From Chthoniobacterales bacterium (lineage in GTDB: Bacteria > Verrucomicrobiota > Verrucomicrobiia > Chthoniobacterales > UBA10450), in NCBI GenBank assembly GCA_013695925.1, contig JACCZO010000180.1, positions 1 to 34,713 of the forward strand: 34,713 bases of DNA. Reading direction: 5' to 3'. A program made the position numbers and the translations under genes. The notes below the pieces were generated by a model. It saw only the letters and a list, made by a program, of their open reading frames with translations, did not search any database and had not been told where the DNA came from. Position 1 is the first letter of the stretch. The number at the start of each line of letters is the position of its first letter. This document shows, piece after piece, positions 1,818 through 31,957 of this stretch.

Positions 1818-1866
1818 GCGAGCTTCCAGCTTGCGCTTTCCGTTAGGCTGCAAGCTGGAAGCTTGC
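1818..1866. repeat. Long inverted repeat between rho and the DUF4112 gene: 17-bp arms and a 15-nt loop, with each arm itself a small palindrome
   Basis: GCGAGCTTCCAGCTTGC (1818-1834) pairs with GCAAGCTGGAAGCTTGC (1850-1866) with one G:T pair. The loop GCTTTCCGTTAGGCT carries the CGTTAGG heptamer. The structure ends 6 nt before the ATG at 1873 and has no T-tract. Confidence 0.6.
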
Positions 1867-1872
1867 GTTACC

Positions 1873-2708: not shown

Positions 2709-5441
2709 CTAGTCGACGAGGTAACGCAGCCGCAAAGAGTGGATGATTTCCCGCGACTGTCCGTACGGCTTCCGGAAATTCTCGATCGTCCCGCAATTCA
2801 TCCGGCGCGCGAAAATATCCTCTTCGGTGCGATCAGCCGGCAGGCGTGAGACACTGCGATTTGCCCAGCGCCGCAGGACCGATTCGCAGGCGCGCAAGAA
2901 ATTGTAGGCGCTCCGCAGGCTGCCGGCGTCGCCTGCCACCATGATTTTCTGGCCGCGCAAGAGGTCGAGGGCCGAAAGAAAATTCGGTTCCCAGATCCCG
3001 TGCCGCATCTGCAGACCCTGCACCAAAAACTCAGCTTCAATCATCCCGCCGATGCCGGTCTTGAAATCATAAAAATCATTCCCGCTCCCGCGCTCGTTGG
3101 CGATGCGGGCGAGCATGTTCTCGATTTGCCTAACGAGGTCGGGGCGGCGGCCTGCGGCCAGCCAGAGCTCTTTCGCGAGGGCCTCGAAATCGTATCGGTG
3201 CGGTCCGGAGATCCCCCGCGCCCGGGTGAGCGATTGCAGTTCCCAAAACTGGGCGCGCTTTTCGTAGTAACCGCGCAAAGTCTCGAGCGAACAGACCAGC
3301 GGCCCCTTTTCCCCTTCCGGCCGCAGCCGGGGGTCGAGCGTTGCGAAACTTCCTTCGGCAGTCGAGAGCGCCATCTCGCCAATCAGGTTTTGCGCCGGAC
3401 GCGGGTCGTCGCCCACGAAGAGAACATCCAAATCCGCGCCATAACTAATCTCGCGCCCGCCGAACTTCCCAAGCCCGACAATGGTCACCGTTCCCTCAGG
3501 ATTCAACAGGCAGTCGACAACAACAAGGCAGGCCTCGGCCAGGTCGTTCTGCTCGGCGAGCAGTTGCGAGAGGGGCGCGATCTCGAGGACATCACGCAAC
3601 AGGATCCGGAGCGATTCACGCTGCCGGTAGACCCGCACCGCATCCACCTTTTCGTTGGTCGCGCCTAACGACTCCAGGCGCTCGAGATGTTGCGCCAGGC
3701 TGAAGGTGCGATCGAGCATTCCGCCTCGGGTCAGCTCCTCGAGCCATTGCGGGCGACGTATCAACCAGCCGCCACCCGCCTCGCTCGCATCAAAGGTCTT
3801 CACCAGCAATTCCAGCAGCCGGGGATTCGCCCCGAGCAATTCAAAGAGCAAACTTCGGAAGCCGTAAGCTTCCACAAAACGCACGAACTGAGTGAGGGTC
3901 GCATCGGGGTCGGCCGCACGGCTCAGCCAGGTCACGACCAAGGGTCGAAGCTTGCGAAAAATCTGCCGGGTGCGCGGCGCGACATGGAATCCGGCGCCGC
4001 TCTCGCCCAGTTGGGTCAGCGCCTTTGCCGCCTGCGCGGGGTCGCGAAAATTGCGCAAGTCCGGCACACCTAATTCCTTCGCCGGCCCAGCTTCGCCAAT
4101 CACTCGCTGGAAGATGGCGCGCACCCGCCGCATCTGGGTGCGAAGTTCCGCGAGCAGCTCCGCGCTCCCGGCGAAGCCAAGGCTCTGCGCCAGCACCTGC
4201 AAAGCTTCGCCCTCTTCCGGGATGGTGTGCGTCTGCTGCTCGGCCTCGATCTGCAGGCGGTGCTCCACTCGCCGCAGAAATCGGTAGGCCATTTCGAGAT
4301 GATTCGCGTTTTCGTTAGGCAGCAACTCCAGCTCCGCCAGGCCGCGGATCGCCTTGAGCGTCCCGGCTTCCTGCAAAAACGGCTGCCGCGCCGCGTGCAG
4401 GAGTTGCAACGCCTGCACCACAAACTCGATCTCCCGGATCCCGCCCGCGCCCAGTTTCACATTCCGTTCCCGGTCCTCGAAGCCGAGGATGTCGCGCTCG
4501 ATCCGGCGCTTGATCGCGGCCACTTCGTCGAGCAGATCCGGCGTCGGACTTTTCGGAAAAACAAAGGGCTGGAGCTGACGGAGAAAATCGTAGGCCAGCT
4601 CGCGATCACCGCAGATCCAGCGCGCCTTGATCAAGGCCAGCCGCTCCCACATTTCGCCAAAACCGGCATAGTAGTTTTCCATGCTCTCGAGCGAGCGGAC
4701 GAGCGGGCCGCCGCCCCCTTCCGGCCGCAGCCGCAGATCGACCCGGAAAAGCGAGCCCGCCGGATCGGAGCCGGCGAAGGTCTCGACGATCTTGTTCCCG
4801 AGGCGGGTGAACCATTCGTGATAACTGAACCTCGCGTTCAACTGGCCCTCATCGCTGTAGAGGAAGATGAGGTCGACATCGGAGCTGTGATTCAGTTCGC
4901 GTCCGCCCAGCTTTCCCATCCCGATGATCGCAAACTGACTCTCCGGCGACCCCCAGCGCTGGCGCAGCTCGACGTCCCAGTGTTCAAAAACGGTCGTTAG
5001 GCAAATATCCGCCAGCTGCGACAGTTCGATCAGCGTTTCCTCGAGCGGCGCCACCTCGGATACTTCGCGCAATGCGATCCGCACCATCTCGCGACCTTTC
5101 CAGAAACGAAGGACGCGAAAATTATCGGCCGCAATCGAGGCGCGGCCCGCCAGGTTGTGCAGATCGGTCATCATCCGGCCAAAACCGCGCCGGTCGGCGC
5201 AGGTGTCGGGATGGGCCAGCCAAAGCAATATTTCCGGATGCTGACTGAGACGGGTGGCGCAGATCCCGGAGACGGAGAGGAGATGAAAGAGGGCCTCCGC
5301 GCCTAACGGAAAGCCGGCGATGAGTTCCGGCAGGGGCGGCGCGTCCGGCGGCCAATTCGCCTCGATTGCCTCCAGCGTCCGCGCCACCTGGGCCGGGCGG
5401 ATGCTGCGCGCGATTTCCCCTAACGAGTCCGCCACCGCCAC
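2709..5441 (-). CDS. glnE: Bifunctional glutamine synthetase adenylyltransferase / adenylyl-removing enzyme
   Basis: The 910-aa product has two nucleotidyltransferase modules (GMGKLGGRELNHSSDVDLIFLY...VDLRLRPEG and GLGKFGGREISYGADLDVLFV...LDPRLRPEG) plus GGIREIEF. It uses a GTG start, and the rhomboid stop codon (5443-5445) lies 1 nt upstream of that start. Confidence 0.93.
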   Translation of the reverse strand: MAVADSLGEIARSIRPAQVARTLEAIEANWPPDAPPLPELIAGFPLGAEALFHLLSVSGICATRLSQHPEILLWLAHPDTCADRRGFGRMMTDLHNLAGRASIAADNFRVLRFWKGREMVRIALREVSEVAPLEETLIELSQLADICLTTVFEHWDVELRQRWGSPESQFAIIGMGKLGGRELNHSSDVDLIFLYSDEGQLNARFSYHEWFTRLGNKIVETFAGSDPAGSLFRVDLRLRPEGGGGPLVRSLESMENYYAGFGEMWERLALIKARWICGDRELAYDFLRQLQPFVFPKSPTPDLLDEVAAIKRRIERDILGFEDRERNVKLGAGGIREIEFVVQALQLLHAARQPFLQEAGTLKAIRGLAELELLPNENANHLEMAYRFLRRVEHRLQIEAEQQTHTIPEEGEALQVLAQSLGFAGSAELLAELRTQMRRVRAIFQRVIGEAGPAKELGVPDLRNFRDPAQAAKALTQLGESGAGFHVAPRTRQIFRKLRPLVVTWLSRAADPDATLTQFVRFVEAYGFRSLLFELLGANPRLLELLVKTFDASEAGGGWLIRRPQWLEELTRGGMLDRTFSLAQHLERLESLGATNEKVDAVRVYRQRESLRILLRDVLEIAPLSQLLAEQNDLAEACLVVVDCLLNPEGTVTIVGLGKFGGREISYGADLDVLFVGDDPRPAQNLIGEMALSTAEGSFATLDPRLRPEGEKGPLVCSLETLRGYYEKRAQFWELQSLTRARGISGPHRYDFEALAKELWLAAGRRPDLVRQIENMLARIANERGSGNDFYDFKTGIGGMIEAEFLVQGLQMRHGIWEPNFLSALDLLRGQKIMVAGDAGSLRSAYNFLRACESVLRRWANRSVSRLPADRTEEDIFARRMNCGTIENFRKPYGQSREIIHSLRLRYLVD

Positions 5442-6258: not shown

Positions 6259-6534
6259 GGAGCAAAATTATCGCAAACGCTCCGGCTTGTCATTGGGAAT
6301 CCGAGGCGCGCTCTGTTGCTAGCGAGGCCCTGCCTCAGACCGGGGGTCTACCGATGGCGGAGCGAGCTCTGTCGAGATGGGGAGGGCGAACGGCTGCACA
6401 AAAGACTCTCTTCCCCTGCTCGACAGAGTCTCGCTCCACCCCCCAAGGCATACCATTCCCAACAAGGACAAAACTTGATCTCTTTACTCGGAATTTTAAG
6501 AAACAAGGATTCTAGCGCGCTACGTCGCGCCACC

Positions 6535-7398
6535 CTAACGAGGCGCGAGCACTTTTAGCCGCCGCGTTTGCATCTCAAATTCCACCGGGCAATTGCCGAC
6601 CAGTTCGCCATCCAGCTCCACCGGCACGTCGTCCGCGCTCGTCACGCGCAGGCGCGAGGTCTGAAAGTACTCCACCTCCCGCGTCGTGATCTCGGAAGTG
6701 AAGATGACGTTTTGGAGATACTTGACGATTTCGATGTAGCCGAGCTGCTTGAAGACGAGCACGTCGAGGAGACCGTCATCGAGCACGGCGTGCTTGAAAA
6801 AGGGAAATGGTCCGCCGTAAAGCCGACCGTTCCCGACCAGAACAAAGGAGCCTTCTTTCGTGACAGCATCCTTCGATTCGATCGATAAACGCGGCGGCCG
6901 CCGCCCCGCGATCTGCGCCGCGGAGATGAGATAACTGAGCGGTCCGAAATTTCGCTTCAACGTCAGGCTGGTTTCTTTCACGACCTGTGCGTCAAGCCCC
7001 ACGCCCGCCAGTTGCACGAAATGTTTCTTGTTCGCCGCCGGCAAATCGATCAGCCGGGTGCGACCGCTCCGGATGATTTCCCAGCAACGCCCGAGATCGT
7101 TAGCTGGGAGGCCGAGCTCGTTGGCGAAGACGTTCATCGTGCCCATCGGCATCAAGCCCAGGGCGGCATCCGAGCCGGCGATGCCGTTCACGACCTCATT
7201 GATCGTGCCGTCGCCGCCCGCCGCCACGATCCGGTCGAAACCGTCCGCGACCGCCGCCCGCGCCCGTTGCTCCGCATCCCCCGCCCCGACCGTCGCGCAA
7301 AAGAAGGCTTCGCCACACATCGAGCGCAGTTGTTTTTCCCAGCGGCGTGCGCGCTCGCTCCGCGCGGCTGGGTTTAGAATGACGCAGGTTTTGCTCAA
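6535..7398 (-). CDS. YegS/BmrU/DAGK-family lipid kinase
   Basis: Motifs present are VILNPAA, RIVAAGGDGTINEVVNG and PMGTMNVFANELGLP. The start is a TTG, and the TAG stop lies inside a CCTAACG heptamer. Confidence 0.85.
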   Translation of the reverse strand: MSKTCVILNPAARSERARRWEKQLRSMCGEAFFCATVGAGDAEQRARAAVADGFDRIVAAGGDGTINEVVNGIAGSDAALGLMPMGTMNVFANELGLPANDLGRCWEIIRSGRTRLIDLPAANKKHFVQLAGVGLDAQVVKETSLTLKRNFGPLSYLISAAQIAGRRPPRLSIESKDAVTKEGSFVLVGNGRLYGGPFPFFKHAVLDDGLLDVLVFKQLGYIEIVKYLQNVIFTSEITTREVEYFQTSRLRVTSADDVPVELDGELVGNCPVEFEMQTRRLKVLAPR

Positions 7399-7459: not shown

Positions 7460-9055
7460 GTGAAGAAACTCGGCCGCCTCTTGCTCTGGCTCCTCGCCGG
7501 GGCCGTAGTTTTGGCCTTCATCGTCTTGCTCGCGGTCAATCTCTATGTCCAATCGCAGGGCACCCACCATCGCATTCAGCAGGAACTCAGCCAGCGGCTC
7601 AACACGCCGCTCCATCTTCGCCAGATCAGCGTTACTCCCTGGAGCGGGCTGAAGCTCAACGGCATCACCATTCCGCAGGAGTCCGGCAAGATCGGCGGCA
7701 ATTTCCTCGAGGCGCAGAGCTTCCAGCTGCGGGTGCAGTTCTGGTCGCTTTTCAGGGAGCGGCTCGTCATCCGGCAGGTTTCGTTGATTAAACCGGAAGT
7801 CGTCTGGGCGCAGAATTCCGCCGGCAAGTGGCGGCTGCCCGAGTTGCCGCCGGAAAAGTCCGCCCCTCGACCGGCCCCTCCGACCGAGCCGGCGGCCTCT
7901 CCTCTTCCCACTGCAATTCTCGCCTCGACCGCGACGGTGGCCGTCCTGCCTAACGGGCCGGGTCTCGCTCCCACGCCCGCTCCCGTTTTTACCCCCGAAG
8001 TTCAGCGCGTCACGCTCAAGGACGGCGACTTCACCTTCCTCGATGCCGCCGGCCGGGTGATCGCGAAATTTAACGGACTCCACTTCACTTCCAGCTTCCG
8101 CACCGCGACCGCGATCAAGGGCAGTGCGCGGGTCGACAAGATCTCGTTGCGGGATCGCTTCTTCATCGAGAACCTCGAATCCCCGCTCCGCTACCAGCCC
8201 GAAGAGCTGGGCTTTTCCAACATTTCCGCCCAGGCCGCGGGCGGCTCGATCAGCGGTCGTTTTGAGATGGAATTGCAAGCCCCCGATTCGCCCTTCACCG
8301 TGGAGGTTAAATTCCGCGAGCTGCAGGCGGAGAAACTCATGACCAACGCGGGCGGGCCCGCCGGCATGATCCAGGGCCGCCTCGAAGGATTCCTCAATGC
8401 GGCCGGAAAAACAGCCGACAGCAACGCCCTGACAGGCCACGGCGAAATCGTGCTGCGCGACGGAAAATTGCAACAATACAGTCTCCTCGTCGCGCTCGGA
8501 CAGATTTTGCAGATCGATGAGTTAATGCAGCTCGATCTCGAGCAGGCCGAGGTGAAATATCACATCAGCCCCGGGATTGTGACGATCGACCAGTTGCTCC
8601 TTCGTTCGCCTAACATTCGCCTGACCGCGACCGGCACGATCAGTTTCCGGGGAAAATTACGGCTCGATTCGCAACTCGCGCTGAATGACAAGGTGCGGCG
8701 CCAACTCTTCAGCCCGATCCGGCAAAACTTCCAACCCCTGGCGGAACCGGCCGGCTACGCCGCGGTCAATTTTCAGGTCAGCGGAACCGTCGATCGGCCG
8801 AAAACCGACTTGATGGATAAGCTGGTCGGCCGCGATCTACGCGATCTGCGCGGCGTGATCAGCAGCCTCTTCGGGCACGGGAAAAAGAAAAAGAAACCCG
8901 CCAAAGAATCGCCTTCGCCTAACGAGGAGGTCGAGACGTCCCGCGAGACCACACTCGCGGCTGACCAGACCGCAACCCCTTCGGATCAAACCGCCTCCTC
9001 GCCTTCGGTTACGCCCACCTCCTCGCCGTCGGCCACACCTTCGCCTTCGCCATGA
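7460..9055 (+). CDS. AsmA-family (outer-membrane biogenesis) protein with an S/T/P-rich C-terminal tail
   Basis: It has an N-terminal signal-anchor (LLLWLLAGAVVLAFIVLLAV), an AsmA-like N-terminal region and a C-terminal region (VSGTVDRPKTDL). The start is GTG, and the stop overlaps the rsmD start (ATGA). Confidence 0.68.
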   Translation: MKKLGRLLLWLLAGAVVLAFIVLLAVNLYVQSQGTHHRIQQELSQRLNTPLHLRQISVTPWSGLKLNGITIPQESGKIGGNFLEAQSFQLRVQFWSLFRERLVIRQVSLIKPEVVWAQNSAGKWRLPELPPEKSAPRPAPPTEPAASPLPTAILASTATVAVLPNGPGLAPTPAPVFTPEVQRVTLKDGDFTFLDAAGRVIAKFNGLHFTSSFRTATAIKGSARVDKISLRDRFFIENLESPLRYQPEELGFSNISAQAAGGSISGRFEMELQAPDSPFTVEVKFRELQAEKLMTNAGGPAGMIQGRLEGFLNAAGKTADSNALTGHGEIVLRDGKLQQYSLLVALGQILQIDELMQLDLEQAEVKYHISPGIVTIDQLLLRSPNIRLTATGTISFRGKLRLDSQLALNDKVRRQLFSPIRQNFQPLAEPAGYAAVNFQVSGTVDRPKTDLMDKLVGRDLRDLRGVISSLFGHGKKKKKPAKESPSPNEEVETSRETTLAADQTATPSDQTASSPSVTPTSSPSATPSPSP

Positions 9056-9684
9056 GAGTCATCGCCGGAAGCTCCGGCGGCATCCGGCTCTTCGTTCCCA
9101 AGACCGATGTCCGGCCCACCATGGATCGGGTCAAAGCCGCCATCTTCTCCAGCCTGGGCGAGCGCGTTATCGGCGCGCGGGTGCTCGATCTCTTTGCCGG
9201 CACCGGCGCGCTCGGGATCGAGGCGCTCAGTCGCGGCGCGGCTTCTGCCATGTTTGTGGAAATCGATCGCCAGGCGATCGCCGCGATCGAACGCAATCTT
9301 GCCCAGACCGGCCTCAGCGGCCGGATTCGGAAACAGGACGTTTTTGATTTTCTCAATCACGCCAGCACCGCTGAGTCGCACGATCTGATTTTCGCCGACC
9401 CGCCCTACGACAAATCGAAGCTCGGCGATGCCTTCACCAAGCTTCTCCTGCGCAACGATCGTCTGCCCCCGCGCCTAACGAGTGACGGAATTTTCGTGCT
9501 CGAAAAAAGACCCGGCGAGCGCCTGCCGGCGACGGATTTTTGGGAAGTCACCCGGCGCAAAACCTACGGCGCGACCGAGACGATTTTCCTGCAAGTTGTA
9601 GCCGGGGGCGGTGACTCCGGCCGAGCCAGGGCCAAGAAAGCGTTACGCCAGCCGGGGTCAACGCCCCCGGCTACAACGCAATGA
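9052..9684 (+). CDS. rsmD: 16S rRNA (guanine966-N2)-methyltransferase RsmD
   Basis: Motifs present are MRVIAG..GG, RPTMDRVKAAIFS, LDLFAGTGALGIEALSRGA and FADPPYD. The C-terminal ~25 aa are read-through of a palindromic repeat (9595-9677). Confidence 0.88.
   Translation: MRVIAGSSGGIRLFVPKTDVRPTMDRVKAAIFSSLGERVIGARVLDLFAGTGALGIEALSRGAASAMFVEIDRQAIAAIERNLAQTGLSGRIRKQDVFDFLNHASTAESHDLIFADPPYDKSKLGDAFTKLLLRNDRLPPRLTSDGIFVLEKRPGERLPATDFWEVTRRKTYGATETIFLQVVAGGGDSGRARAKKALRQPGSTPPATTQ
9595..9677. repeat. REP-like palindromic element, family GTAGCCGGGGGCG (copy 1)
   Basis: GTTGTAGCCGGGGGCG (9595-9610) is the reverse complement of CGCCCCCGGCTACAAC (9662-9677), with additional inner pairing. A second copy lies at 25335-25404. 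Confidence 0.7.
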
Positions 9685-12148: not shown

Positions 12149-12178
12149 AACCGGGTTCCAATCCCGTTAGGGTCGCCA
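12149..12178 (+). pseudogene. Duplicate of the tRNA-Glu 3' end (T-arm + acceptor + CCA), a possible att-type direct repeat
   Basis: AACCGGGTTCCAATCCCGTTAGGGTCGCCA compares with tRNA 11066-11096 AACACGGGTTCGAATCCCGTTGGGGTCGCCA (1 deletion, 2 substitutions). No 5' half or anticodon arm lies upstream. Confidence 0.6.
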
Positions 12179-12776: not shown

Positions 12777-12809
12777 GACTTCTTCCTCCGCTGCGTTTTT
12801 TTTGATTCG

Positions 12810-15936: not shown

Positions 15937-15954
15937 AGGGATTCTCCCGGTTCG

Positions 15955-23011: not shown

Positions 23012-23373
23012 GCGGTCGCGACTCCTTTCGTGAACTCGGCGGTTTGCCGCGTCTGTGTTCGCCTAACGAGATAACGAACTGAAACGCGAAGGGTGGAATC
23101 CTCGCTCAGCACGTCGACCGCATCGACTTGGATGAGATCGCCCAGATACTGCTGCAGCGATCCCTGGACCAGATACTGGGTGGTCGCGGCGAGCTGGTCG
23201 CTGTTGGGCGCGAAGACGAGCTGGAGCAATCCGCTCCCGAAGTCCGGGCGGTTGACCCGTTCCCCCGGCGCGGTGAAGAGCACCTGCTCGATCAGGTCAC
23301 GAATATGCGCGTCGTAATCGACCGCGGCGGTGCGGCCGCGTGCGTCGAAGTGATACGGGAAAGCGATGTTCAC
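23008..23373 (-). CDS. GPW/gp25-family baseplate wedge protein (Afp9-like)
   Basis: The 121-aa product contains IRDLIEQVLFTAPGERVNRPDFGSGL, the classic gp25 core. The start is GTG. Confidence 0.9.
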   Translation of the reverse strand: MNIAFPYHFDARGRTAAVDYDAHIRDLIEQVLFTAPGERVNRPDFGSGLLQLVFAPNSDQLAATTQYLVQGSLQQYLGDLIQVDAVDVLSEDSTLRVSVRYLVRRTQTRQTAEFTKGVATA

Positions 23374-24807: not shown

Positions 24808-25320
24808 TTAAATAATCGTTAGGGCGCTGGCGTTGATGTCAGTGGAAGGACCGACCATGTTGATGATCGCGCCCTTGCCGTTGGAAATGATGATGCCGGT
24901 GTCGCTGACCGAGACCATCGCGCCGGTCGTAGTCTTGATCAGAATGCCACCGGTCGGACCCGGCACGTCGCTGATCGTCAGGCTATTTTGCAACGGTGTT
25001 TGAAAAGTGATTCCGGGAACGCCGGGCGGGACGATCAAAGCCGCGGCTGGCACTTCCGCGGCGCTGCCGTAGAAACAGCCAGTCCAGATCGGGTAATCGG
25101 GATCGCCATGCTCGTATTCGATCCAGACGGCGGACCCAACAATCGGCACCGTGAACATACCATTCTGGATCCCGGCGATCGGGAAACATGGCATGCACCA
25201 GCTCGACGGAAGCAGGCCGGTCACATCGGGCACGATCGCCATGATCCGCCCCATCATCATGGGATCGATGTTGTTCAGGACCGTGCCGCGATATTTGCCG
25301 AAGAATTTTTTATCACTCAT
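24808..25320 (-). CDS. Phage baseplate assembly protein V / gp5-like spike (VgrG OB-fold; Afp8 C-terminal part equivalent)
   Basis: It contains FFGKYRGTVLNNIDPMMMGRI...GSAVWIEYEHGDPDYPIWTG. I chose the ATG at 25320 because the GTG at 25389 would translate the REP-like palindrome. Confidence 0.85.
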   Translation of the reverse strand: MSDKKFFGKYRGTVLNNIDPMMMGRIMAIVPDVTGLLPSSWCMPCFPIAGIQNGMFTVPIVGSAVWIEYEHGDPDYPIWTGCFYGSAAEVPAAALIVPPGVPGITFQTPLQNSLTISDVPGPTGGILIKTTTGAMVSVSDTGIIISNGKGAIINMVGPSTDINASALTII

Positions 25321-25334: not shown

Positions 25335-25404
25335 TGTAGCCGGGGGCGTTGAACCCGGCGGGACGAGGTGGCCGCCAGGCCGGGGTCACCGCCCCCGGCT
25401 ACAA
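25335..25404. repeat. REP-like palindromic element, family GTAGCCGGGGGCG (copy 2)
   Basis: TGTAGCCGGGGGCG (25335-25348) is the reverse complement of CGCCCCCGGCTACA (25390-25403). It matches the arms of the 9595-9677 element. Confidence 0.7.
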
Positions 25405-25428: not shown

Positions 25429-26556
25429 TCATGCCGGGACTTTCGCGAAGGTGGAGATGAGGCCGTTGCGGGTGAGGGTGAAATCCTGTTTGAACTCGCC
25501 GCGCTTAATCTTGCTCGTCACACTCTTGACGTAGTAGAGGCCGTCGAAGGCTTCTCCGACGCCGCGCAGCCCAACCAGCCGGCGCGCTTTCAGGACCTGG
25601 CCATAACGCGCGACGTTCAGGCTGCCCGTGGCGGTCACGGCCTCGACGCTTCGCGCCGCTTTCGTTAGGCCAAGGACGGCGGCGCGGATCGGCGAATAAT
25701 TCGCGGTCTCGTTGATCGGCTCGAGGTTGAGCGGGATCGGCGGGATCAAACCGAGCGGCGGATTGAGCGGCGAAATGTTCGGGATCGGAATGGGAACTGG
25801 GACATGGGTCTGCTGGTTTTGGATGTAAACGATCGGGATGACCGCACCCTGCGAACGGAAGCTGCAGGAGACGCTCTCGATGTTACTCGCCGCATCCATG
25901 TTGATGCTGAGCGCCTTTTGTGGCTCGCCCACCTTTATTTCTGGACCCCAGTAGGCCACGCTCATCCCCGGCTCCGGGCCGGGATCGACATAAAAGACGT
26001 AGCCAACCTCATCCGCGAGCGAGCGGATGTAGGCGAGGTCTTTGCCCTGCTGCACCGGGATGCGATCGGTCGGGATCGGGATATCGATTAGGATGCTCGG
26101 GATGACGAGCGGGACGATGCCGAGGAAAGCGTACTTGAGCAGGATCAATCCCACACGCGCTTCCGGCGGCATGGCGGGAAACGGGAACCCGCTGAAGTCG
26201 ATGTAATCCATCACCCGGCTGAGATCTTCACCGGTGATGGTGAGGACGGAATGCGAGGCATCGGCCCCGGGACGGATCTCGTGATTGGTCATCACGCCAT
26301 CCATTAGCACCTCGGCATTGCCGCCGACCGTGACGATGATTACCACCCTGACGAGTGGAATCGACGCGCCGCCTGCGAGAAGGAAGATGGTTTGGAGCGG
26401 CGAGCGATGGCTGAGGGTGAACTCGAGCTGGAAACCGCTCCCGCTCTCGCTGTTCGTGGTCACACTGAGGGAGGTCAGTGCCTCGAGCACCTCCTGCGAG
26501 ACCGGCACAGGCACGACCGGGCCGATCATGAGCGTGAGATGAAAACCATTAGCCAT
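25429..26556 (-). CDS. Phage late control gene D-like baseplate hub protein (Afp8 N-terminal part equivalent)
   Basis: The 375-aa product has a gpD/VgrG-N-like sequence (DLAYIRSLADEVGYVFYVDPGP...). It lies immediately upstream of the gpV spike and overlaps the LysM gene by 8 nt. Confidence 0.72.
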   Translation of the reverse strand: MANGFHLTLMIGPVVPVPVSQEVLEALTSLSVTTNSESGSGFQLEFTLSHRSPLQTIFLLAGGASIPLVRVVIIVTVGGNAEVLMDGVMTNHEIRPGADASHSVLTITGEDLSRVMDYIDFSGFPFPAMPPEARVGLILLKYAFLGIVPLVIPSILIDIPIPTDRIPVQQGKDLAYIRSLADEVGYVFYVDPGPEPGMSVAYWGPEIKVGEPQKALSINMDAASNIESVSCSFRSQGAVIPIVYIQNQQTHVPVPIPIPNISPLNPPLGLIPPIPLNLEPINETANYSPIRAAVLGLTKAARSVEAVTATGSLNVARYGQVLKARRLVGLRGVGEAFDGLYYVKSVTSKIKRGEFKQDFTLTRNGLISTFAKVPA

Positions 26557-26911
26557 TTTGTGCTCCGGGAATGTTCTCCGGCAGGGTGATGCGGAGGCGG
26601 CGGCCGACCGGCTCGATCAGTTCGTTAGGCCGAACCGCGCCGTTGGCGTCGCAAAGCCGCCAGAACTGCTCCGGATCGCCGAGATACTTCGCCGCGATTT
26701 GATCCAGCCGCTCCCCTTCGGTCACGCTGTGCTCCTGCAGGAGGGCGAAATTCTCCGGCGGCGGAACGAAGCGGCGCCGCAGATAAGCCACCTCGGTTCC
26801 GTCCGGCATCGTCAGCTTGGCGAGCGGCGTTTGGTGGTATCGGCTGTTGGCCGGGAAGGCCGGGGTGGCGGCGCCGGTTTGCTGGAGCAGGGCCTGGAGT
26901 TGATCGCTCAT
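26549..26911 (-). CDS. LysM-like / tail protein X-like protein
   Basis: The 120-aa product has a C-terminal HSVTEGERLDQIAAKYLGDPEQFWRLCDANG...GRRLRITLP region that is LysM-like. Its position matches the LysM part of Afp7. Confidence 0.68.
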   Translation of the reverse strand: MSDQLQALLQQTGAATPAFPANSRYHQTPLAKLTMPDGTEVAYLRRRFVPPPENFALLQEHSVTEGERLDQIAAKYLGDPEQFWRLCDANGAVRPNELIEPVGRRLRITLPENIPGAQNG

Positions 26912-26939: not shown

Positions 26940-27021
26940 CCGCAGATTTCGCAGATTTACGCAGATTTCTTTCCGGCACTTCGGCGCTTCCTAAATCTGC
27001 GAAAATCTGCGTCATCCGCGG
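26940..27021. repeat. Palindromic CGCAGATT-repeat element (copy C, gene-less)
   Basis: CCGCAGATTTCGCAGATTTACGCAGATTT (26940-26968) is mirrored by AAATCTGCGAAAATCTGCGTCATCCGCGG (26993-27021). It fills the gap between the tube-like and LysM genes. Confidence 0.72.
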
Positions 27022-27026: not shown

Positions 27027-27689
27027 TCATGAAATCCCCTTGATCCCGAAGTTGGCGAAGGATCCGTTAGGCGCGAGGCCCGCGAGCCGTTCCTTTTGCT
27101 GCTGGTAAATCATGTAAAGACTCCCCGCCTTGGCCTCGAAACCGACATCGTTCACACTCAGGACGCGCAGCCCGAGGCTGACCTTGGCCCGGATGGGATT
27201 GAGGTTCGGATCGAAGGCTTCCTCCGTGATGCTGAATTCCGTCAGGCGCACCGGGATGATCCGGTTCTTGCTCCAGATAAAAAGCGTAAGCGCGGACTGC
27301 ATCGGGATGATCTCGAGCGTGCCCGATTTCGAGAGCGCGTTGTTCGATTGCAACTGCTCGCTCGTCGGATAAACGATCGCCTCCAGCGCCGCGAGCTGCG
27401 GATGAATCCCGACCTCGACCGCGTTCGTATTTTGATCCGGAAACTCGAGCTGATCGGTCGCGTCGATCTCCGCATCGAGCTTGATCGTTTCCACCGGCGG
27501 CCCCTTCAGCCGCAATATCTCGGAACGATCACCGCCGCCATCCGCGCTCACGCCTTGGATTTGGAGCGAACGCGTCAGCGTGTCGGGATTGTATTGCAGC
27601 GAAATAATCCGCTGCACTGCGCCCGAGTCCGGATTCACGAGGACGATGCCGCCCTTGAGCAGTTTTGGTGAATTGGGAAAAGTGCTCAT
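27027..27689 (-). CDS. CIS tube-like protein (tube initiator / Afp7 N-terminal-like)
   Basis: The 220-aa product contains LLKGGIV...ISLQYNPDTLTRSL...LRLKGPPVETIKLDAEIDATD...IIPVRLTEFSITEEAFDPNLNPIRAKVSLGLRVL, resembling gp19/CIS-tube-fold proteins of eCIS loci. Confidence 0.68.
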   Translation of the reverse strand: MSTFPNSPKLLKGGIVLVNPDSGAVQRIISLQYNPDTLTRSLQIQGVSADGGGDRSEILRLKGPPVETIKLDAEIDATDQLEFPDQNTNAVEVGIHPQLAALEAIVYPTSEQLQSNNALSKSGTLEIIPMQSALTLFIWSKNRIIPVRLTEFSITEEAFDPNLNPIRAKVSLGLRVLSVNDVGFEAKAGSLYMIYQQQKERLAGLAPNGSFANFGIKGIS

Positions 27690-27692
27690 TCG

Positions 27693-29162
27693 TTAGGCAA
27701 GCTGGTCTCCTCCCTCGACCCGGTCGGGGCCGGCGTAGAGCGTGCCACTCGGCCGCTCCAACATTGCGCCCTGCTTCTTTTGGCCGCCGCTCGGCGCCGC
27801 GGCCGGTGCGGCCGTAGTCGTGATTTTGCAGGGACTGGTTTGATCGGTCAGGTCCTTGACGCACATCGAGCCCTTCTGCCAATCGTAGTTGTATTCCGGA
27901 CTCGCCCAGACGGCGGCCAGGTTCCCTTTGTGCGCAAAATAGAGCCGCTTGATTTTCGTCATGTTTTTCGCCGCTGTTTCTCCTTTCGCCAGGCCCTCGA
28001 TGCAGTCCTTGACCGCGTGCCCGTCGGCGCTTTTAAGTCCGCTCACCTGTTTGACCAGCGCTGCGTCCACCTCGCCTTCCTTGCCTTTCGGAATCTGACT
28101 CGGATCGGTCAGTTCGGTTCCGTCGGGCAGCACGAGGGGCGTAACCACGCTGACGATGCTCCAGCAGGTCATGCCGCGGGCCTTCTGCGCGCCGACATTT
28201 TGACGGAAGGTTTCCATCTCCTGCGGAGCGTCGCCGAGCTTGCAGCCACGAAAATCGATCAGCGCCGGTGCCTTGTCCGCAGGAATGCCCTTCAGATCCT
28301 TGCTCAAGTCGGAGAGCTTGACCCAGGAGATTGTCCCGATACCGGAGATGACCTGCACTTCGCCCGCGCGGTTCGAATGCGAGACGACGAAAATGGTGCC
28401 GATCGGTTTGCCTAACGCCAATAGCTTTTTCTTGGCATCTTCCCCACTGGTCACGCGGATGGCGGTCGGGGCGTAGCTTTTCCCTTCCGTCATCGCGTCC
28501 GCTTCGTCGCCGAAAACGATCGCCACATCGATCCGTTCTTCTGGTTTGGCGTCGTCGCGTTGCACCGCGTGACGGCCGGGCGCGGTCTGCTGTACGACAT
28601 GGGCGAGCTCGTGCGCGAGAAGTTTCTGGCCCGCCGCCGTCGCCGGCGCGTACCGCCCAGCGTTAAAAGCGATGTGGCTGCCCACGGTGTAGGCGTGCGC
28701 CCGAACGGCCCGCGCGCTTTCCGCCGCCCGCGAATCAGCATGAATGCGCACGTCTCCAAAATGATGACCGAAGTGGGAAGACATCCGGTCCCGCGTCGCC
28801 GAATCGAGCGGCTCGCCGCCGGATGCGACCACCTCATCCACGATCGGCGGCGAGGTCATGTCGCCGAGAGAGTCTCCGTTCCACGACGAGAGCCGCGCCC
28901 GGGACGCGCTCGAGCCTAACGAGTCGGCCGCCCGGTCCGCCTCCTCTTCCAAGGCGCTACCAGAAGCCGTCACAACCAGTTTGGCCTGCAGCTTCGCCGG
29001 CGGGCGCTCCGTCGCGCGCTGCTGCTTGCGACAGCTCTCGCATTCTCCCGCGGGCCCGGGGGTTCCACCGCAGGCGCATTTGCGCTGGAGCCGCGCACTC
29101 CGCCAGGGCGCGGACAGTTGCGCTGTGCTCGCCTGGGTTTGCAGTAGATTCGCCTCTTTCAT
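27693..29162 (-). CDS. DUF4157 domain protein 3 (Cys-rich leader + DUF4157 with HELAH + orphan ~285 aa C-terminal domain)
   Basis: Its parts are the leader LQRKCACGGTPGPAGECESC, EEEADRAAD, and the DUF4157 core PPIVDEVVASGGEPLD...FGHHFGDVRIHAD...AYTVGSHIAF...LLAHELAHVVQQ. It overlaps the upstream gene with ATGA. Confidence 0.85.
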   Translation of the reverse strand: MKEANLLQTQASTAQLSAPWRSARLQRKCACGGTPGPAGECESCRKQQRATERPPAKLQAKLVVTASGSALEEEADRAADSLGSSASRARLSSWNGDSLGDMTSPPIVDEVVASGGEPLDSATRDRMSSHFGHHFGDVRIHADSRAAESARAVRAHAYTVGSHIAFNAGRYAPATAAGQKLLAHELAHVVQQTAPGRHAVQRDDAKPEERIDVAIVFGDEADAMTEGKSYAPTAIRVTSGEDAKKKLLALGKPIGTIFVVSHSNRAGEVQVISGIGTISWVKLSDLSKDLKGIPADKAPALIDFRGCKLGDAPQEMETFRQNVGAQKARGMTCWSIVSVVTPLVLPDGTELTDPSQIPKGKEGEVDAALVKQVSGLKSADGHAVKDCIEGLAKGETAAKNMTKIKRLYFAHKGNLAAVWASPEYNYDWQKGSMCVKDLTDQTSPCKITTTAAPAAAPSGGQKKQGAMLERPSGTLYAGPDRVEGGDQLA

Positions 29163-31957
29163 GGCAGCGGATGGCGGGCGTTTAGTTGTTCCGCGAGGTC
29201 GACGATCTTGCTTTGGTGTCCGGCGATGATGTTACTGACCCGGCCGACGAGGGCGCGCAAAAGCAGGCGAGTCCGTTCCGGCGTCGTCGTTAGGGCAAAA
29301 AAATCGTCGCCGAGAACGATGGAAGTGCCCGGGCCGGCCGACCACGAAGTGGTTTTCGCCGCCGGATCGCGCTTCGCGTTCAGATCAGCGCGGACCCGAT
29401 TGAGCAGAGTCTTGTAACGGTCGGCCAGGCCCGCGACCGCAAAGCGATCGTCATCGGTCGGGAGGGCGGGCGGCGGCGTTAGGCCAAACTGCGCGGCGAT
29501 CAGCTTCATCGTTTCTTCGTAGTAGCTGTTGGTCCATTTCTTCTTCGGGGGACGCGATTCCACCATCGTGGAATAGGTGCTGGCCGTTTCCTGGTGGGAC
29601 CATTTCAACCAGTCCGCCAAGAGAGTGATGGCGTCGGCCACGCCGGATTTCTCGCCCGCGGCGACGGTCAGTTTGTCCACCGGAAGCTTCGGCCGGGCAA
29701 AGGACGGATCCGCCGCCAGCATGACGAAAAGCGAGTAACTGTCGGAGTTCTGCAGCGCCTGGTCCGGCGTCAGGCTGGCGATGCGGCGTTCGTGCCGGTA
29801 AGCGATATCAGTCGTGCCGGCCGTCTTCCCTGCGAGGCCCAGCCCCGGCGTGCCGTGGGCGGTTTCGTGGATGAAATTGCGTTTCCGTTCCTGCTTGCCG
29901 GCGCTCACGAAGGTCGGGCAAAGCGTCAGCGTCGCCTTCTTGCCTTCATCTTCGTTGTAGGCAATCGCTACCGTGCAGGTGCCGTTGCATAGCGTCCCGC
30001 AGCGATGTCGCTTTTTCTTCGCCACGATGTCCATTTGCGCCCGAACCTTCCCCAGGTTCGCGTCCAGCGTCGTCATCATCGCGGCCCCGCTGCCCGCGCC
30101 GCCTCCCCCCCCGAAAAACTCGTCCCGCAGATCGTTCGTACTTGCATCCGTTCCTGAGGTGAGAAGCCGGCGGGCCTTGTCGATTAATCCCTGCGCCTCC
30201 GTCCGTACCGCGACGAAATCCGTTTCGACGTTGGCGCTGCACGGCCCGGTGGCCGCCGTCTTTTTGCAATCAGGAACCGCGGAGGTGGCCCCGGCGGGCC
30301 CGATCTCGACCTCGCGCAAGCTGCGATAGTCGAGCCGTCCGTCGCCGACATCGGGCTTCGGGTCCGGCTTGCGTTTGCCGGTGTGTCCGACCGTCTTCAA
30401 TTCCGCATCGACCGCATTGATCCGCCGGTCGGCCAGGGTCCGGCCGATTGCCGGGGTCGTCGCCTCATCCTCGCTTACCCGACCGATGAGATCGAGATCG
30501 TCTCCGCTGTGCGCTCCGCCGCCGGCGATGAGGACGGCAAACTTTCCCTCCGAGCCGATCGCGACATCGTTGCGCTCAAAAAAGACGCTATGGGCGCCAG
30601 ACGAACCCATCCCGCTCTTGCGCCCCGTCACCTCCAGGCCCGCCGGAACGGCCCGCTGCACGGCGGGCGGCAGTGCGCTCTGCTGCAAGACGTGGGTCAA
30701 CTCGTGCGCGAGCAACTGGCGGCCGGCATTTGTCTCCGGGGCAAAGCTGCCGCCGGCAAAAACGACATCCTGCCCGACCGTGTAGGCCCGGGCCTGGACG
30801 GCGCGGGCCGATTCCGCCGCGCGTCCGTCGCGATGAATCCGCACGCTTCCAAACTCGTAACCGAAACGATCTTCCATGAACTCGCGCGTCGCGCGGTCGA
30901 GCGGTTCTCCGGACGATTGCAGTACCTGATCGACGATCGGGGGCGCGCTGCCCACTTCCTGATGGCCCGCGGCCTTGCGCTGGAGGGTTCCTTCTTCTTT
31001 TTTCTTCGGTTCCTCGCTCGTTTCGCCGCTCAGTTTGAAATCCGGAGCCCACGGGCCTAACGAACGTCGCGGCCCCGCGGCCGGGGCCCCGGGGCGGAAA
31101 CCGGGATCCTGCCCCACCGCCCCGAAGGAGAGCGGCGAGGTGCGCGGCGTCAGCTGGCCGGGAGCGAGCATCCGGCTCGAGACGTAGGCGTTGATCATCT
31201 CTTGCTCGCTCGCCTTCTCTTCATCGCTCTTGAGGCCTTCGCGAAACTTCGCCTGGTCCGCCGCCATCCGCGCGGTCTCGGCCCGGAACTTTTCGGTCTC
31301 GCTGAGCGTGGTTTTTTTGTCGCGCGTCTTTTCTTTGCCTAACGGAATGCTGAAGGTCGCGACCACCTTGGTCGGTTTATCGACCGGCCCTTCATAGGTG
31401 ATTTTCATCTTCAGGCCGGGCCTGATCTTATCGAGCGGGATCTCGGGAATTCCGATCGGCAATTCCTTGTGCGTGGCCGCGAGGGTCGCGACCGCTCCGG
31501 CAACGGCGGCGCCGGTAATGATCTTCCCCGGCAAGGTCGAAATGAAGGCGTCTCCGAGCTCTTCTGCTTTTTTTGTGATCTCTTTGCCCTGCGGAGTTTC
31601 GAGAAACGCTTCGCCCACCTTCTTGGCTGCTTCTTTGTATTTTTCCTCTTCGGATTTCGGCTTGGCCGGTTCTTCGCGTTGCACGGCACCGCCGCTACCT
31701 AACGAACTGATTGAAGGGCGGCCCGTGCGCCCCCCGCCGACCGCCTCTTCGGCTACCCGGTCGGCCTCCTGCTCGTACTGGTCGCCGGGCTGATTAATCG
31801 CCAACTTGGTCTGTAACGATAGCCGTTGCCGTTTGCACTCGGCACACTCCCCGGTCGGCCCGGGAGTTCCGCCGCAGGCGCACTTGCGCTGCAGCGTTGG
31901 TTGGGCGGAAAGCTTGCTGGCTGTGGCTTGGACAGGCTGAGCGACAGTTACTCTCAT
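29159..31957 (-). CDS. DUF4157 domain protein 2 (Cys-rich leader, ~300 aa K/E-rich linker, DUF4157 with HELTH, C-terminal aspzincin-like HExxH domain)
   Basis: Its parts are LQRKCACGGTPGPTGECAEC, EQEADRVAE, PPIVDQVLQSSGEPLD...FGYEFGSVRIHRD...LLAHELTHVLQQ, and then a second motif set, FIHETAHG...GTTDIAY...LQNSDSYSLF. There are ATGA overlaps at both ends. Confidence 0.85.
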   Translation of the reverse strand: MRVTVAQPVQATASKLSAQPTLQRKCACGGTPGPTGECAECKRQRLSLQTKLAINQPGDQYEQEADRVAEEAVGGGRTGRPSISSLGSGGAVQREEPAKPKSEEEKYKEAAKKVGEAFLETPQGKEITKKAEELGDAFISTLPGKIITGAAVAGAVATLAATHKELPIGIPEIPLDKIRPGLKMKITYEGPVDKPTKVVATFSIPLGKEKTRDKKTTLSETEKFRAETARMAADQAKFREGLKSDEEKASEQEMINAYVSSRMLAPGQLTPRTSPLSFGAVGQDPGFRPGAPAAGPRRSLGPWAPDFKLSGETSEEPKKKEEGTLQRKAAGHQEVGSAPPIVDQVLQSSGEPLDRATREFMEDRFGYEFGSVRIHRDGRAAESARAVQARAYTVGQDVVFAGGSFAPETNAGRQLLAHELTHVLQQSALPPAVQRAVPAGLEVTGRKSGMGSSGAHSVFFERNDVAIGSEGKFAVLIAGGGAHSGDDLDLIGRVSEDEATTPAIGRTLADRRINAVDAELKTVGHTGKRKPDPKPDVGDGRLDYRSLREVEIGPAGATSAVPDCKKTAATGPCSANVETDFVAVRTEAQGLIDKARRLLTSGTDASTNDLRDEFFGGGGGAGSGAAMMTTLDANLGKVRAQMDIVAKKKRHRCGTLCNGTCTVAIAYNEDEGKKATLTLCPTFVSAGKQERKRNFIHETAHGTPGLGLAGKTAGTTDIAYRHERRIASLTPDQALQNSDSYSLFVMLAADPSFARPKLPVDKLTVAAGEKSGVADAITLLADWLKWSHQETASTYSTMVESRPPKKKWTNSYYEETMKLIAAQFGLTPPPALPTDDDRFAVAGLADRYKTLLNRVRADLNAKRDPAAKTTSWSAGPGTSIVLGDDFFALTTTPERTRLLLRALVGRVSNIIAGHQSKIVDLAEQLNARHPLP

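Follow-up and report, generated by a model that had tools for sequence, protein, structure and literature searches.

A non-palindromic word repeated about once per kilobase in a Verrucomicrobia and a Gemmatimonadota clade coincides with the integron core site

Only two kinds of short word have so far been known to saturate whole genomes with their copies, DNA-uptake sequences and the cyanobacterial HIP1. HIP1 (GCGATCGC) is a highly iterated cyanobacterial palindrome that contains known methyltransferase targets, and the best comparison among uptake words is offered by the DUS of Neisseriaceae (GCCGTCTGAA) and the USS of Pasteurellaceae (AAGTGCGGT). Another short recognition sequence is the integron core site, with the consensus GTTRRRY and the inverse core RYYYAAC (Hall/Stokes literature). 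DUES are not palindromic, show no orientation bias, stand in inverted pairs in only ~10% of cases and originate by point mutation (PMC1939737). The attC sites of integrons have a conserved AAC/GTT triplet and an R/L-box architecture, and integrons have been recorded in Verrucomicrobia (PMC4889954).

Here we analyse the 9-mer T-CGTTAGG-C, that is (T)CGTTAGGC with the core CGTTAGGC, in a window of 34,713 nucleotides (the whole stretch of DNA studied) from a Chthoniobacterales MAG. A sequence-only reading of this window had counted 45 copies of the heptamer CGTTAGG/CCTAACG by eye, and an exact search finds every one of them where it was placed (22 on the + and 23 on the - strand). Dinucleotide-preserving shuffles contain 1.69 copies on average (maximum 5; 0/100 reach 45). 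Markov expectations are 1.9 at order 2 and 5.3 at order 3, the latter being too high because the word itself inflates the model. The extended consensus proposed by the same reading also holds, with T at -1 in 34/45 and C at +1 in 36/45 copies; outside -1 to +1 the information content is ~0, both in the window and in the copies of Gemmatirosa kalamazoonensis described below. The exact search finds no copy in 1-1840, leaving rho and yebC word-free as had been stated, and none in 31705-34713. The copies of the word along the window, together with the hairpin that holds the first of them, are as follows (coordinates, strand, context):

1812..1872, +, 61-nt hairpin with a 27-bp stem downstream of rho (dG -50.4 kcal/mol, z -8.3), with the 1841 copy at its tip
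1841..1847, +, copy at the tip of the rho-downstream hairpin
3129..3135, -, copy in glnE, L-V-R frame, conserved in 7 related loci
3664..3670, -, copy in glnE, S-L-G frame, conserved clade-wide
4313..4319, +, copy in glnE, P-N-E frame
4995..5001, +, copy in glnE, L-T frame
5302..5308, -, copy in glnE, P-L-G frame, conserved
5419..5425, -, copy in glnE, S-L-G frame
6534..6540, -, copy forming the TAG stop of a DAGK/YegS-like gene (6535-7398, -)
7949..7955, -, copy in an AsmA-like gene, P-N-G frame
8918..8924, -, copy in an AsmA-like gene, P-N-E frame
9474..9480, -, copy in an rsmD-like gene, L-T frame
9938..9944, -, copy in kdtA, L-T frame, a gain specific to the window
10273..10279, +, copy in kdtA, S-L-G frame
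10826..10832, -, copy in kdtA, L-T frame
12165..12171, +, intergenic copy
12808..12814, +, copy forming the TAA stop of a beta-helix gene (12810-14141, -)
13286..13292, +, copy in P-N-E frame
14612..14618, -, copy in a DUF6519 gene, P-L-G frame
15325..15331, +, copy in L-T frame
15953..15959, +, copy forming the TAA stop of the gene at 15955-18039 (-)
16145..16151, -, copy in S-L-G frame
16682..16688, -, copy in S-L-G frame
17405..17411, -, copy in P-L-G frame
17629..17635, +, copy in L-T frame
18094..18100, -, copy in S-L-G frame
18738..18744, -, copy in L-V-R frame
19170..19176, +, copy in L-T frame
20313..20319, +, copy in L-T frame
20600..20606, +, copy in a baseplate-J gene, L-T frame
21663..21669, -, copy in a baseplate-J gene, S-L-G frame
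21890..21896, +, copy in L-T frame
22645..22651, +, copy in P-N-G frame
23062..23068, -, copy in a gp25-like gene, L-V-R frame
24817..24823, +, copy in a spike (Phage_base_V) gene, L-T frame
25663..25669, +, copy in L-T frame
26623..26629, +, copy in P-N-E frame
27065..27071, +, copy in a CIS tube gene, P-N-G frame
27691..27697, +, copy forming the TAA stop of an eCIS_core gene (27693-29162, -)
28411..28417, -, copy in A-L-G frame
28915..28921, -, copy in S-L-G frame
29288..29294, +, copy in L-T frame
29477..29483, +, copy in L-T frame
31056..31062, -, copy in S-L-G frame
31338..31344, -, copy in P-L-G frame
31698..31704, -, copy in S-L-G frame

The coding context agrees with the earlier description as well. 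The four stop-free frames are all used in the window ((S/P)-L-G 16, x-L-T 14, P-N-x 7, L-V-R 3), copies in the remaining frame supply the real stop codon of four genes (ending at 6535, 12810, 15955 and 27693), one copy (12165) is intergenic, and the 1841 copy does sit in the loop of the hairpin downstream of rho. Of the rare codons that the word was said to force, about a third lie inside copies in the window (15/40 TTA and 14/42 CTA codons).

An ortholog matrix and codon alignments of rho revealed that new copies are point substitutions at pre-sites in conserved genes, not insertions. The gains are mostly synonymous and draw on rare TTA, CTA or AGG codons; the rho alignments contain GTC-CGG to GTT-AGG, CTC-GGC to TTA-GGC and CTG-ACA to CTA-ACG, and one change from Q to N. 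Once established, sites are retained: 49/85 are intact against 17.8 expected, and they are conserved ~3-fold better than other heptamers. The exact word is far commoner than its one-off variants, and tolerance varies by position. The earlier claim of a natural word that is kept up at the level of the DNA stands.

The enrichment continues beyond the window. The word occurs ~1 per kb in genes of one soil Verrucomicrobia clade and one Gemmatimonadota clade, 25 to 220 times above chance across both, and the clades differ in the flank 'dialects' they use. Within Chthoniobacterales the heptamer enrichment is graded (26x, 8x, 2.4x and 0.2x); in the high-density clade (162 kb) it reaches 26x for the heptamer and 220x for the 9-mer. 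An unrelated accA locus carries 1.19 copies per kb in a 12:13 orientation. The word shows no link to transcription: relative to the sense strand the orientation is 108:86, and the intergenic density about equals that of coding DNA. In Gemmatimonadaceae, CGTTAGGC is the top outlier of a clade that includes the cultured G. kalamazoonensis KBS708, whose 1.1-Mb plasmid holds 778 copies against 14.6 expected (z ~200, the top 8-mer). A core shared by two phyla is unexpected, and a pure uptake drive would not predict it. Some metagenome contigs hold the word in tandem arrays.

Compared with DUS and USS, the present word is likewise a non-palindromic 9-10-mer at ~1 per kb and >100-fold enriched, and the density and fold enrichment bear out the likeness first suggested (45 against 1.7 in the window; 220x for the 9-mer). 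Copies stand in both orientations without chromosomal polarity, seen replicon-wide in the Gemmatimonadota organism only, occur within genes in tolerant frames and also in non-coding DNA, arise by point mutation, far outnumber one-off variants and form clade dialects. There are also differences. Inverted terminator-type pairs, a feature typical of the family though not strictly defining, are rare here (6/31 close pairs are inverted); the two DUES families have unrelated words, whereas one 8-mer core is found here in two phyla; the word coincides with an integron core site; and the carriers are free-living soil bacteria instead of host-associated Proteobacteria.

By this analogy we tentatively favour, with less than even confidence, the reading that (T)CGTTAGGC is a lineage-specific recognition word maintained by an uptake-sequence-like molecular drive. 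On the pattern established for the DUS of Neisseria and the USS of Pasteurellaceae, a sequence-specific process would keep writing (T)CGTTAGGC throughout the genome: the machinery by which these soil bacteria take up DNA would favour word-bearing fragments, homologous recombination of these fragments would replace word-less alleles, and copies created by point mutation would therefore be fixed more often than lost. Such a molecular drive would run until ~1 copy per kb is reached, wherever protein coding tolerates the word. The model presupposes biased uptake, a putative receptor and a capacity for natural transformation that both phyla would have to possess. Two PilB-like (MshEN/T2SSE) ATPase genes were seen at one locus, L240. 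No contig among 2.9 million viral contigs has a host-like word density, but this counts for little, as the phages that infect these hosts are possibly unsampled. The weak point of the uptake reading is the core shared by two phyla together with its integron identity. Both facts require that the recognising protein moved horizontally or that attC R boxes seeded the word; without seeding from attC sites, the word matches the integron core site by coincidence.

The integron link itself is close. GTTAGGC fits GTTRRRY and its complement GCCTAAC fits RYYYAAC, the adjacent C/G included, and the GTTRRRY family comprises just 16 of 16,384 heptamers. Plasmid 1 of G. kalamazoonensis encodes a genuine IntI (TIGR02249, 423 bits vs a cutoff of 265), and the 54 co-oriented elements adjoining it (810-856 kb of NZ_CP007129.1) show the classical attC fold. 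CGTTAGGC/GCCTAACG are the R'/R'' boxes found most often in them, so that GTTAGGC/GCCTAAC is identical to the commonest R box of a 54-cassette integron. True attC sites, however, cluster by intI and are imperfect palindromes of 60-140 nt that contain an L box, extrahelical bases and a variable loop. By contrast, 94% of the G. kalamazoonensis copies, like all 45 of the window, stand alone as heptamers or octamers within ordinary genes. The former are without L box or hairpin; the latter lack both a partner box within 117 nt and an attC-type hairpin, and are not attC sites. Inverted word pairs in G. kalamazoonensis are mostly attC sites, and besides these no more than some decayed orphan arms, few in number, and a single small CALIN (an attC cluster without integrase) were found.

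It is conceivable, though doubtful, that the genomes of two unrelated soil phyla became saturated, each independently, with the core site (R box) of the integron integrase. The solitary copies number hundreds on the one 1.1-Mb plasmid and, by extrapolation, thousands per genome. If true, this would point to an unrecognised coupling of integrons with whole-genome sequence evolution. It could take the form of IntI-recognised docking sites scattered over the chromosome, of a reservoir giving birth to new attC sites and cassettes, with a bearing on the unsolved question of where gene cassettes come from, or of a DNA-uptake specificity that evolved to fit the one sequence shared by all cassette DNA.

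A related explanation, which we consider rather unlikely, is that IntI or a related tyrosine recombinase binds the solitary copies as double-stranded R-box or attI-like core sites, and that they are kept for this reason. They might serve as docking or secondary cassette integration sites, or as raw material for new attC sites and cassettes. Besides the consensus match and the IntI with its 54 attC elements, a universal IntI consensus would account for one core in two phyla. The tolerance on the G. kalamazoonensis plasmid, with G, T and T of GTT invariant and transitions allowed at 3/4 of the R/R/R/Y positions, mirrors GTTRRRY, the flank aTT-CGTTAGGC of Chthoniobacterales resembles the attC right arm AACGATT-CGTTAGGC, and integrons do occur in Verrucomicrobia. 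Tolerance in Chthoniobacterales, on the other hand, is unlike GTTRRRY: GTC-AGG is elevated, while A to G and G to A changes are not. The solitary state of 94% of the copies also speaks against such sites, as does the lack of any sign of cassette insertion at solitary words in G. kalamazoonensis, and the other loci fetched, a tiny sample, yielded no IntI homologue. We know of no genome-wide core-site enrichment in known integron hosts, e.g. Vibrio. Moreover, site-specific nicking would be expected to erode sites and not to spread them, and no plausible per-site benefit is apparent for thousands of intragenic copies.

Less likely again, the word could be the site of another abundant host protein that is selected about every kb, a non-palindromic analogue of HIP1 whose gene moved horizontally into both clades; candidates would be a nucleoid-associated protein, a strand-discrimination or repair nuclease, or an orphan methyltransferase with a partner. 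Sequence-specific DNA enzymes readily cross phyla. HIP1 is similar in being an 8-mer at ~1 per kb, present in all frames, part of no larger repeat and lineage-restricted, but it is palindromic and TCGTTAGGC is not its own reverse complement; it offers a precedent for an iterated word without sequence-specific uptake (PMC4390886). A binding site would also fit the conservation of copies, the uniform, slightly under-dispersed spread over the 1.1-Mb replicon (variance/mean 0.81 per 10 kb, gap CV 0.85), the densities in the first 50 kb of the megaplasmids (0.50 and 0.78 per kb) and in a chromosomal locus (0.82), and the markedly even gaps in the window (CV 0.58, P<0.0005). The last of these does not generalise, since spacing pooled over related loci is ~Poisson, with frequent close pairs at distances of 8-27 nt. 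Targets of the restriction-modification type are usually avoided, whereas this word is over-represented, and here too the match to the integron core site would have to be coincidental.

It is improbable that the word is a functionless product of a sequence-specific mutation or mismatch-repair bias of the very-short-patch type. Many ancestral states are indeed one step off the word (CGTCAGG, CGTGAGG), and the near-cognates CGTTACGC and CGCTAGGC are depleted on the G. kalamazoonensis plasmid (5 vs 56 and 5 vs 48 expected). Yet gains often require two simultaneous changes, e.g. CC to TA, and established sites are conserved ~3-fold above background. A Vsr-like endonuclease corrects one position and would convert at most one neighbour class; it should thus be unable to yield a 50-220x enrichment with eight constrained positions.

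A polar signal such as Chi (RecBCD/AddAB) or KOPS/AIMS (FtsK), which are also short, over-represented and tolerated within genes, is highly improbable and was effectively refuted, in line with the first reading: these words are strongly co-oriented with replication and ~5-10 times rarer, and despite skewed single 20-kb loci (L008 5:18, L050 7:1) GTTAGGC is balanced over the complete 1.1-Mb replicon (456:436, arcs at most 57:43 at the best post-hoc split, no correlation with GC skew), as is the heptamer in the window (22:23 with 79% of coding bases on one strand). The word density is 5-10 times that of Chi. Equally remote is membership in a larger dispersed repeat (MITE, REP) or an assembly artefact: a minority of copies do lie in real repeats (the G. 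kalamazoonensis attC arms, the tandem arrays), but the flanks are uninformative outside -1 to +1, in-frame copies in conserved housekeeping genes arose by substitution, and the word recurs in MAGs of many independent studies and in an isolate genome. REP/MITE membership was rejected, as no conserved element longer than the word and no structured flanks were found, and the absence of a larger repeat claimed at the outset stands.

Two smaller observations concern the margins of the pattern. The near variant CCTAACA occurs 5 times in the window against 0.8 expected; of the positions named before, 8609, 21402 and 34473 are exact on the + strand, 33679 was off by one (33678), and a copy at 7408 (-) had been missed. 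On the G. kalamazoonensis plasmid, the word-free gaps are lower-GC islands of the SusC/SusD type.

An exact search of the 34.7-kb window recovers 45 copies of the heptamer CGTTAGG/CCTAACG (the word), 22 on the plus and 23 on the minus strand, matching the sequence-only reading at each coordinate it had listed. Dinucleotide-preserving shuffles give a mean of 1.69 copies and a maximum of 5, which bears out the over-representation claimed there. The 8-mers CGTTAGGC (n = 36) and CCTAACGA (n = 34) rank first and second among all strand-merged 8-mers of the window, and GCCTAACGA (n = 26) is its top 9-mer. When the 45 copies are aligned, T precedes the word in 34 and C follows it in 36, as the proposed consensus T-CGTTAGG-C had implied, and the flanks beyond -1/+1 carry zero information. 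The unit is therefore this 9-mer and no fragment of a longer repeat; sequence logos of the window and of a complete plasmid described below rule out a larger dispersed repeat.

The earlier description of how the word sits in genes also stands. Forty window copies are intragenic, in the four stop-avoiding frames (S/P)-L-G (16), x-L-T (14), P-N-x (7) and L-V-R (3), and four copies supply the stop codon of a gene. Two further placements are listed here.

Placement of individual word copies in the window
12165: intergenic copy in the frame analysis
1812-1872: hairpin with a 27-bp stem 3' of rho, dG -50 kcal/mol, with a word copy at its tip, as the sequence-only reading had noted

This hairpin, between rho and the DUF4112 gene, is unusually long and near-perfect; at the equivalent spot the related locus L007 carries an inverted pair of the word instead. 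In the window the two orientations are about equally frequent with respect to the sense strand. Copies use four frames and either strand and also occur between genes, which rules out a cause at the peptide, codon or RNA level. The word contains 15 of the 40 TTA and 14 of the 42 CTA codons of the window, despite a G+C content at third codon positions of about 0.76 in this genome, so the word runs against codon preference and is imposed on the DNA as such. Its cost is measurable as rare TTA, CTA and AGG codons in housekeeping genes, which implies that a strong force must maintain it. Spacing in the window is markedly even (CV 0.58, P<0.0005); this is a property of the window only, pooled related loci being close to Poisson. 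Close pairs in those pooled loci are mostly direct, not inverted.

By its Rho, which matches a MAG contig at 99% amino-acid identity, the window belongs to Verrucomicrobiota, order Chthoniobacterales. Enrichment was determined by group in 80 species-representative loci around rho, the Chthoniobacterales data consisting of stretches of 35 kb or less.

Enrichment of the word around rho
Window, L002-L004, L006-L008 and L010: heptamer 26x (1.3 per kb; up to 2.07 per kb in L007), 9-mer 220x
L005, L058, L017, L032 and L050: heptamer 8x, 9-mer 61x
Udaeobacter-like loci: heptamer 2.4x, 9-mer 9x
Chthoniobacter/Terrimicrobium-like loci: heptamer 0.2x, 9-mer with 0 copies seen

Enrichment is graded across these groups and independent of the rho neighbourhood. 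An accA-pdh-pilB region of 21 kb, reached through one soil contig of a metagenome search and part of a 3.67-Mb contig, has an AccA 98% identical to a Chthoniobacterales MAG protein and holds 25 copies (12+:13-, 1.19 per kb). This metagenome search, seeded with two word copies, returned many soil contigs with more dispersed copies in both orientations; tandem repeats (L083, L085, L105, L175 and L195) were left out as irrelevant. The enrichment, which the sequence-only reading had considered might be confined to the window, thus extends to other loci, to the accA region and to a second phylum. No extension of the window contig was found, the sole indexed contig with the same protein being shorter (13.9 kb).

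Several of the comparison loci have peculiarities of their own. L239-L241, from a word-rich Chthoniobacterales genome, carry at 17849-20978 two or three adjacent MshEN + T2SSE (PilB-like) ATPase genes, one of them split in some assemblies, which are predicted to encode type IV pilus or secretion ATPases. L009, a Verrucomicrobia MAG, seemed to offer a second dialect, GAATGACGAA, which was rejected since it forms two local inverted arrays (1749-1865 and 6427-6549) and no dispersed word; there AATGACGA occurs 13 times in 12.8 kb, and L197 has 6 copies. L116 (Ga0137408_1449394, 4380 bp) is a near-perfect inverted self-duplication with word contexts mirrored about position 2230, probably an assembly artefact that inflates its 3.4 copies per kb. 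L044 and L049 bear a Udaeobacter-type rho (86% identity) under MAG records naming Candidatus Limnocylindria and Alphaproteobacteria, probably through mis-binning.

Syntenic alignments of related loci reveal how copies come and stay. The sites at 3129, 3664 and 5302 are common to the whole high-density group, and many others are lineage-specific gains where relatives have near-cognates such as CGTCAGG, CGTGAGG or CGTCCGG. Within rho, a highly conserved gene, gains arose by synonymous single or double substitutions towards rare codons (GTC-CGG to GTT-AGG, CTC-GGC to TTA-GGC, CTG-ACA to CTA-ACG) and once by a conservative Q to N change. The conservation check suggested by the sequence-only reading, run in the high-density relatives (group A), finds window sites intact in 49 of 85 cases against 17.8 predicted from random heptamers in the same alignments; the intermediate group has no site in common with the window. 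Word-rich DNA totalling 201 kb contains 183 exact copies of the 9-mer and only 11-21 of each of its commonest one-off variants (T1>C, C2>T, T5>C, G8>T, C9>G/T), with G3, T4, A6 and G7 essentially invariant.

The metagenome search also returned high-GC contigs with dispersed N-CGTTAGG-C, whose proteins are 85-87% identical to Gemmatimonadaceae MAG proteins and 73% to those of Gemmatirosa kalamazoonensis, a member of the Gemmatimonadota.

Copies of the 8-mer form CGTTAGGC in Gemmatimonadaceae
MAG GCA_035279625.1, 22 kb: 24 observed, 0.4 expected
G. kalamazoonensis KBS708 chromosome, 22 kb: 17 observed, 0.3 expected
Roseisolibacter agri and two other Gemmatimonadaceae, orthologous regions of about 22 kb each: 0 copies

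Replicon-wide tests were carried out on plasmid 1 of this Gemmatimonadota carrier, not on the window's organism, using the complete 1,106,233 bp of the KBS708 plasmid assembled from PLSDB. Expectations come from order-1 and order-2 Markov models and shuffles; a maximal-order model is uninformative because the word dominates every sub-word. CGTTAGGC is by far the strongest 8-mer, with 778 copies where an order-2 Markov model expects 14.6 (z about 200). Its core GTTAGGC is present in 892 copies (456+:436-); all full 50-kb bins except one hold 31-47 of them, the variance/mean per 10 kb is 0.81 and the gap CV 0.85. The longest stretches lacking the word are islands of SusC/SusD type with lower GC. 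Word orientation has zero correlation with GC skew and even the best post-hoc arcs reach only 57:43, so that Chi- or KOPS-like polarity, which the sequence-only reading had denied from the balance in the window, is ruled out over a full replicon. Copies in coding sequence are predominantly in the x-Leu(TTA)-Gly(GGC) frame, and they favour the sense strand 63:37. The flanks lack T at -1 and have a purine at +1 in about 81% of copies; they differ from the verrucomicrobial form, and the two clades therefore use distinct dialects around a common core GTTAGG(C).

In the sole over-filled bin of plasmid 1 lie 54 elements, all in one orientation and each about 100 nt long (810,274-856,147), with the sequence GCCTAACG-CTGGA-GTTCAGCTGCGG...CCGTCAGCTGCAAC-GATT-CGTTAGGC. 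Their fold comprises a terminal stem of 8-11 bp, spacers that stay unpaired, a second stem carrying single-base bulges, and a loop that varies. Integron attC sites are built of R box, unpaired central spacer, L box and variable terminal structure (PMC4889954), and their predicted fold architecture identifies the 54 elements as attC sites. An integrase gene abuts the array.

Integrase of plasmid 1
NZ_CP007129.1 856,827-857,786, minus strand: integron integrase, 319 aa, TIGR02249, 423 bits against a cutoff of 265

The stretch from 810,274 to 857,786 (L264-L265) is a large sedentary integron with short cassette ORFs, the 3' end of the integrase gene facing the array ("inverted integrase" layout). 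Elsewhere on plasmid 1 are a small integrase-free attC cluster (879-882 kb) and orphan arms that have decayed (603,187, 612,336, 789,732 and 797,818). The R' boxes of the array are GTTAGGC (commonest, about a third), GTTAGCC, GTTGGGC, GTTATGC and GTTAGAC, and mostly fit GTTRRRY, the classical integron core-site consensus. This makes the hyper-abundant genomic word identical to the canonical integron core site. The attC array accounts for only 57 of the 892 plasmid copies; the rest, like all window copies, are solitary, and a solitary word is not an attC site. Plasmid 1 has no sign of cassette insertion at solitary words, and tblastn found no IntI homologue in the other loci compared, a sample too small to carry much weight. 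The metagenome contigs L106 (910-999, 60% GC) and L143 (1355-1438, 67% GC) contain typical attC sites with R boxes GCCTAAC/GTTAGGC, hence integron arrays with this R box also occur in mid-GC soil genomes. The chance that a random heptamer belongs to the GTTRRRY family is 0.001. With the few dozen fixed short motifs of a genome taken into account, we regard pure coincidence as very improbable, and therefore put the chances of a real integron link at roughly even. If the identity is no coincidence, the word bears on the interaction of integrons with host genomes and on the origin of cassettes.

Each surviving explanation requires that the word be recognised sequence-specifically, by a DNA-uptake apparatus or another protein. 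Tentatively, and at distinctly under an even chance, we favour an uptake bias that, together with recombination, would spread the word by molecular drive and so account for its abundance. Such a bias would yield every statistical feature of the word, and these features match published properties of the DNA uptake sequences of Neisseriaceae (DUS) and Pasteurellaceae (USS), jointly DUES (PMC1939737). It is also consistent with the lack of word-rich viral contigs: phage carriage was rejected on a pair search of IMG/VR that gave only 32 low-GC hits, chance or tandem, a weak negative. However, neither the shared core nor the integron identity would follow from uptake bias unless attC R boxes seeded the specificity or the receptor was transferred horizontally. 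Recognition by IntI or a relative would explain both the core-site identity and the sharing between phyla, but it lacks demonstrated activity on solitary sites, an evident benefit and evidence in the window's lineage, and we think it unlikely. Slightly more doubtful still is a site for an unknown host protein, as for HIP1 of cyanobacteria. The remaining probability is shared by explanations that are excluded or nearly so: Vsr-type repair bias, which drives only one position and cannot give a 50-220x enrichment of an 8-9-mer, polar signals (by orientation), a dispersed repeat (by the logos) and peptide- or RNA-level causes (by frames and strands).

Genome-saturating short words are very rare, the main examples being DUS, USS and HIP1, each of which has been informative on DNA uptake, recombination or genome maintenance. 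The word belongs to none of the HIP1, Chi/KOPS and REP families. It resembles DUS and USS in look and evolution, but preferential uptake is their defining property, and the terminator pairs typical of them are rare here; on this comparison, membership of the DUS/USS family cannot be claimed. To our knowledge, no DUES-like word has been reported outside Neisseriaceae and Pasteurellaceae; nor, as far as we know, has natural transformation or any sequence-specific process acting genome-wide been demonstrated in Verrucomicrobiota or Gemmatimonadota. A recent comparative DUES study covers only Neisseriaceae and Pasteurellaceae (10.1101/2025.10.24.684340). The literature searched contained neither a mention of the word itself nor a link between DUS and Verrucomicrobia. 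We describe a new genome-saturating word in two abundant but poorly studied soil phyla. Its cultured, fully sequenced carrier G. kalamazoonensis KBS708 makes it experimentally tractable, and as a sharp taxonomic marker it can serve to bin these clades and to spot horizontally acquired islands.

The window itself encodes yebC, rho, DUF4112, glnE, rhomboid, DAGK/YegS-like, AsmA-like, rsmD-like, kdtA and GT25 genes, the last followed by a 22-kb cluster for an extracellular contractile injection system (eCIS).

Other features of the window
23388-24703: two PD-(D/E)XK_3 (PF13366) genes in the eCIS cluster, flanked by the gp25-like and spike genes
24295-24316, 24723-24797, 26946-27005 and 33521-33532: 12-mer AATCTGCGAAAT, 7 copies with at most 1 mismatch, 0.18 expected
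9597-9675 and 25335-25403: inverted pair TGTAGCCGGGGG...CCCCCGGCTACA of about 70-80 nt, two copies

The PD-(D/E)XK_3 pair falls where the window goes longest without the word (23068-24817), a position that suggests the genes were inserted recently. Of the seven AATCTGCGAAAT copies, five sit between eCIS genes, and four of these form two inverted pairs (24723/24786 and 26946/26994) with partners about 50-60 nt from each other; the last two of the seven (24295 and 24305) fall at the overlap of ORFs 23950-24372 and 24272-24703. The motif looks like an operator or promoter element of the eCIS operons. The inverted pair TGTAGCCGGGGG...CCCCCGGCTACA is a REP-like palindromic element. One of its copies is at the rsmD-like gene's 3' end; the second is at the 5' (upstream) end of the spike gene and extends into the adjoining intergenic gap. 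Finally, the ORFs 12810-14141 (beta-helix) and 13993-15936 overlap by 149 nt as listed, and the beta-helix gene in fact probably starts downstream of 14141.
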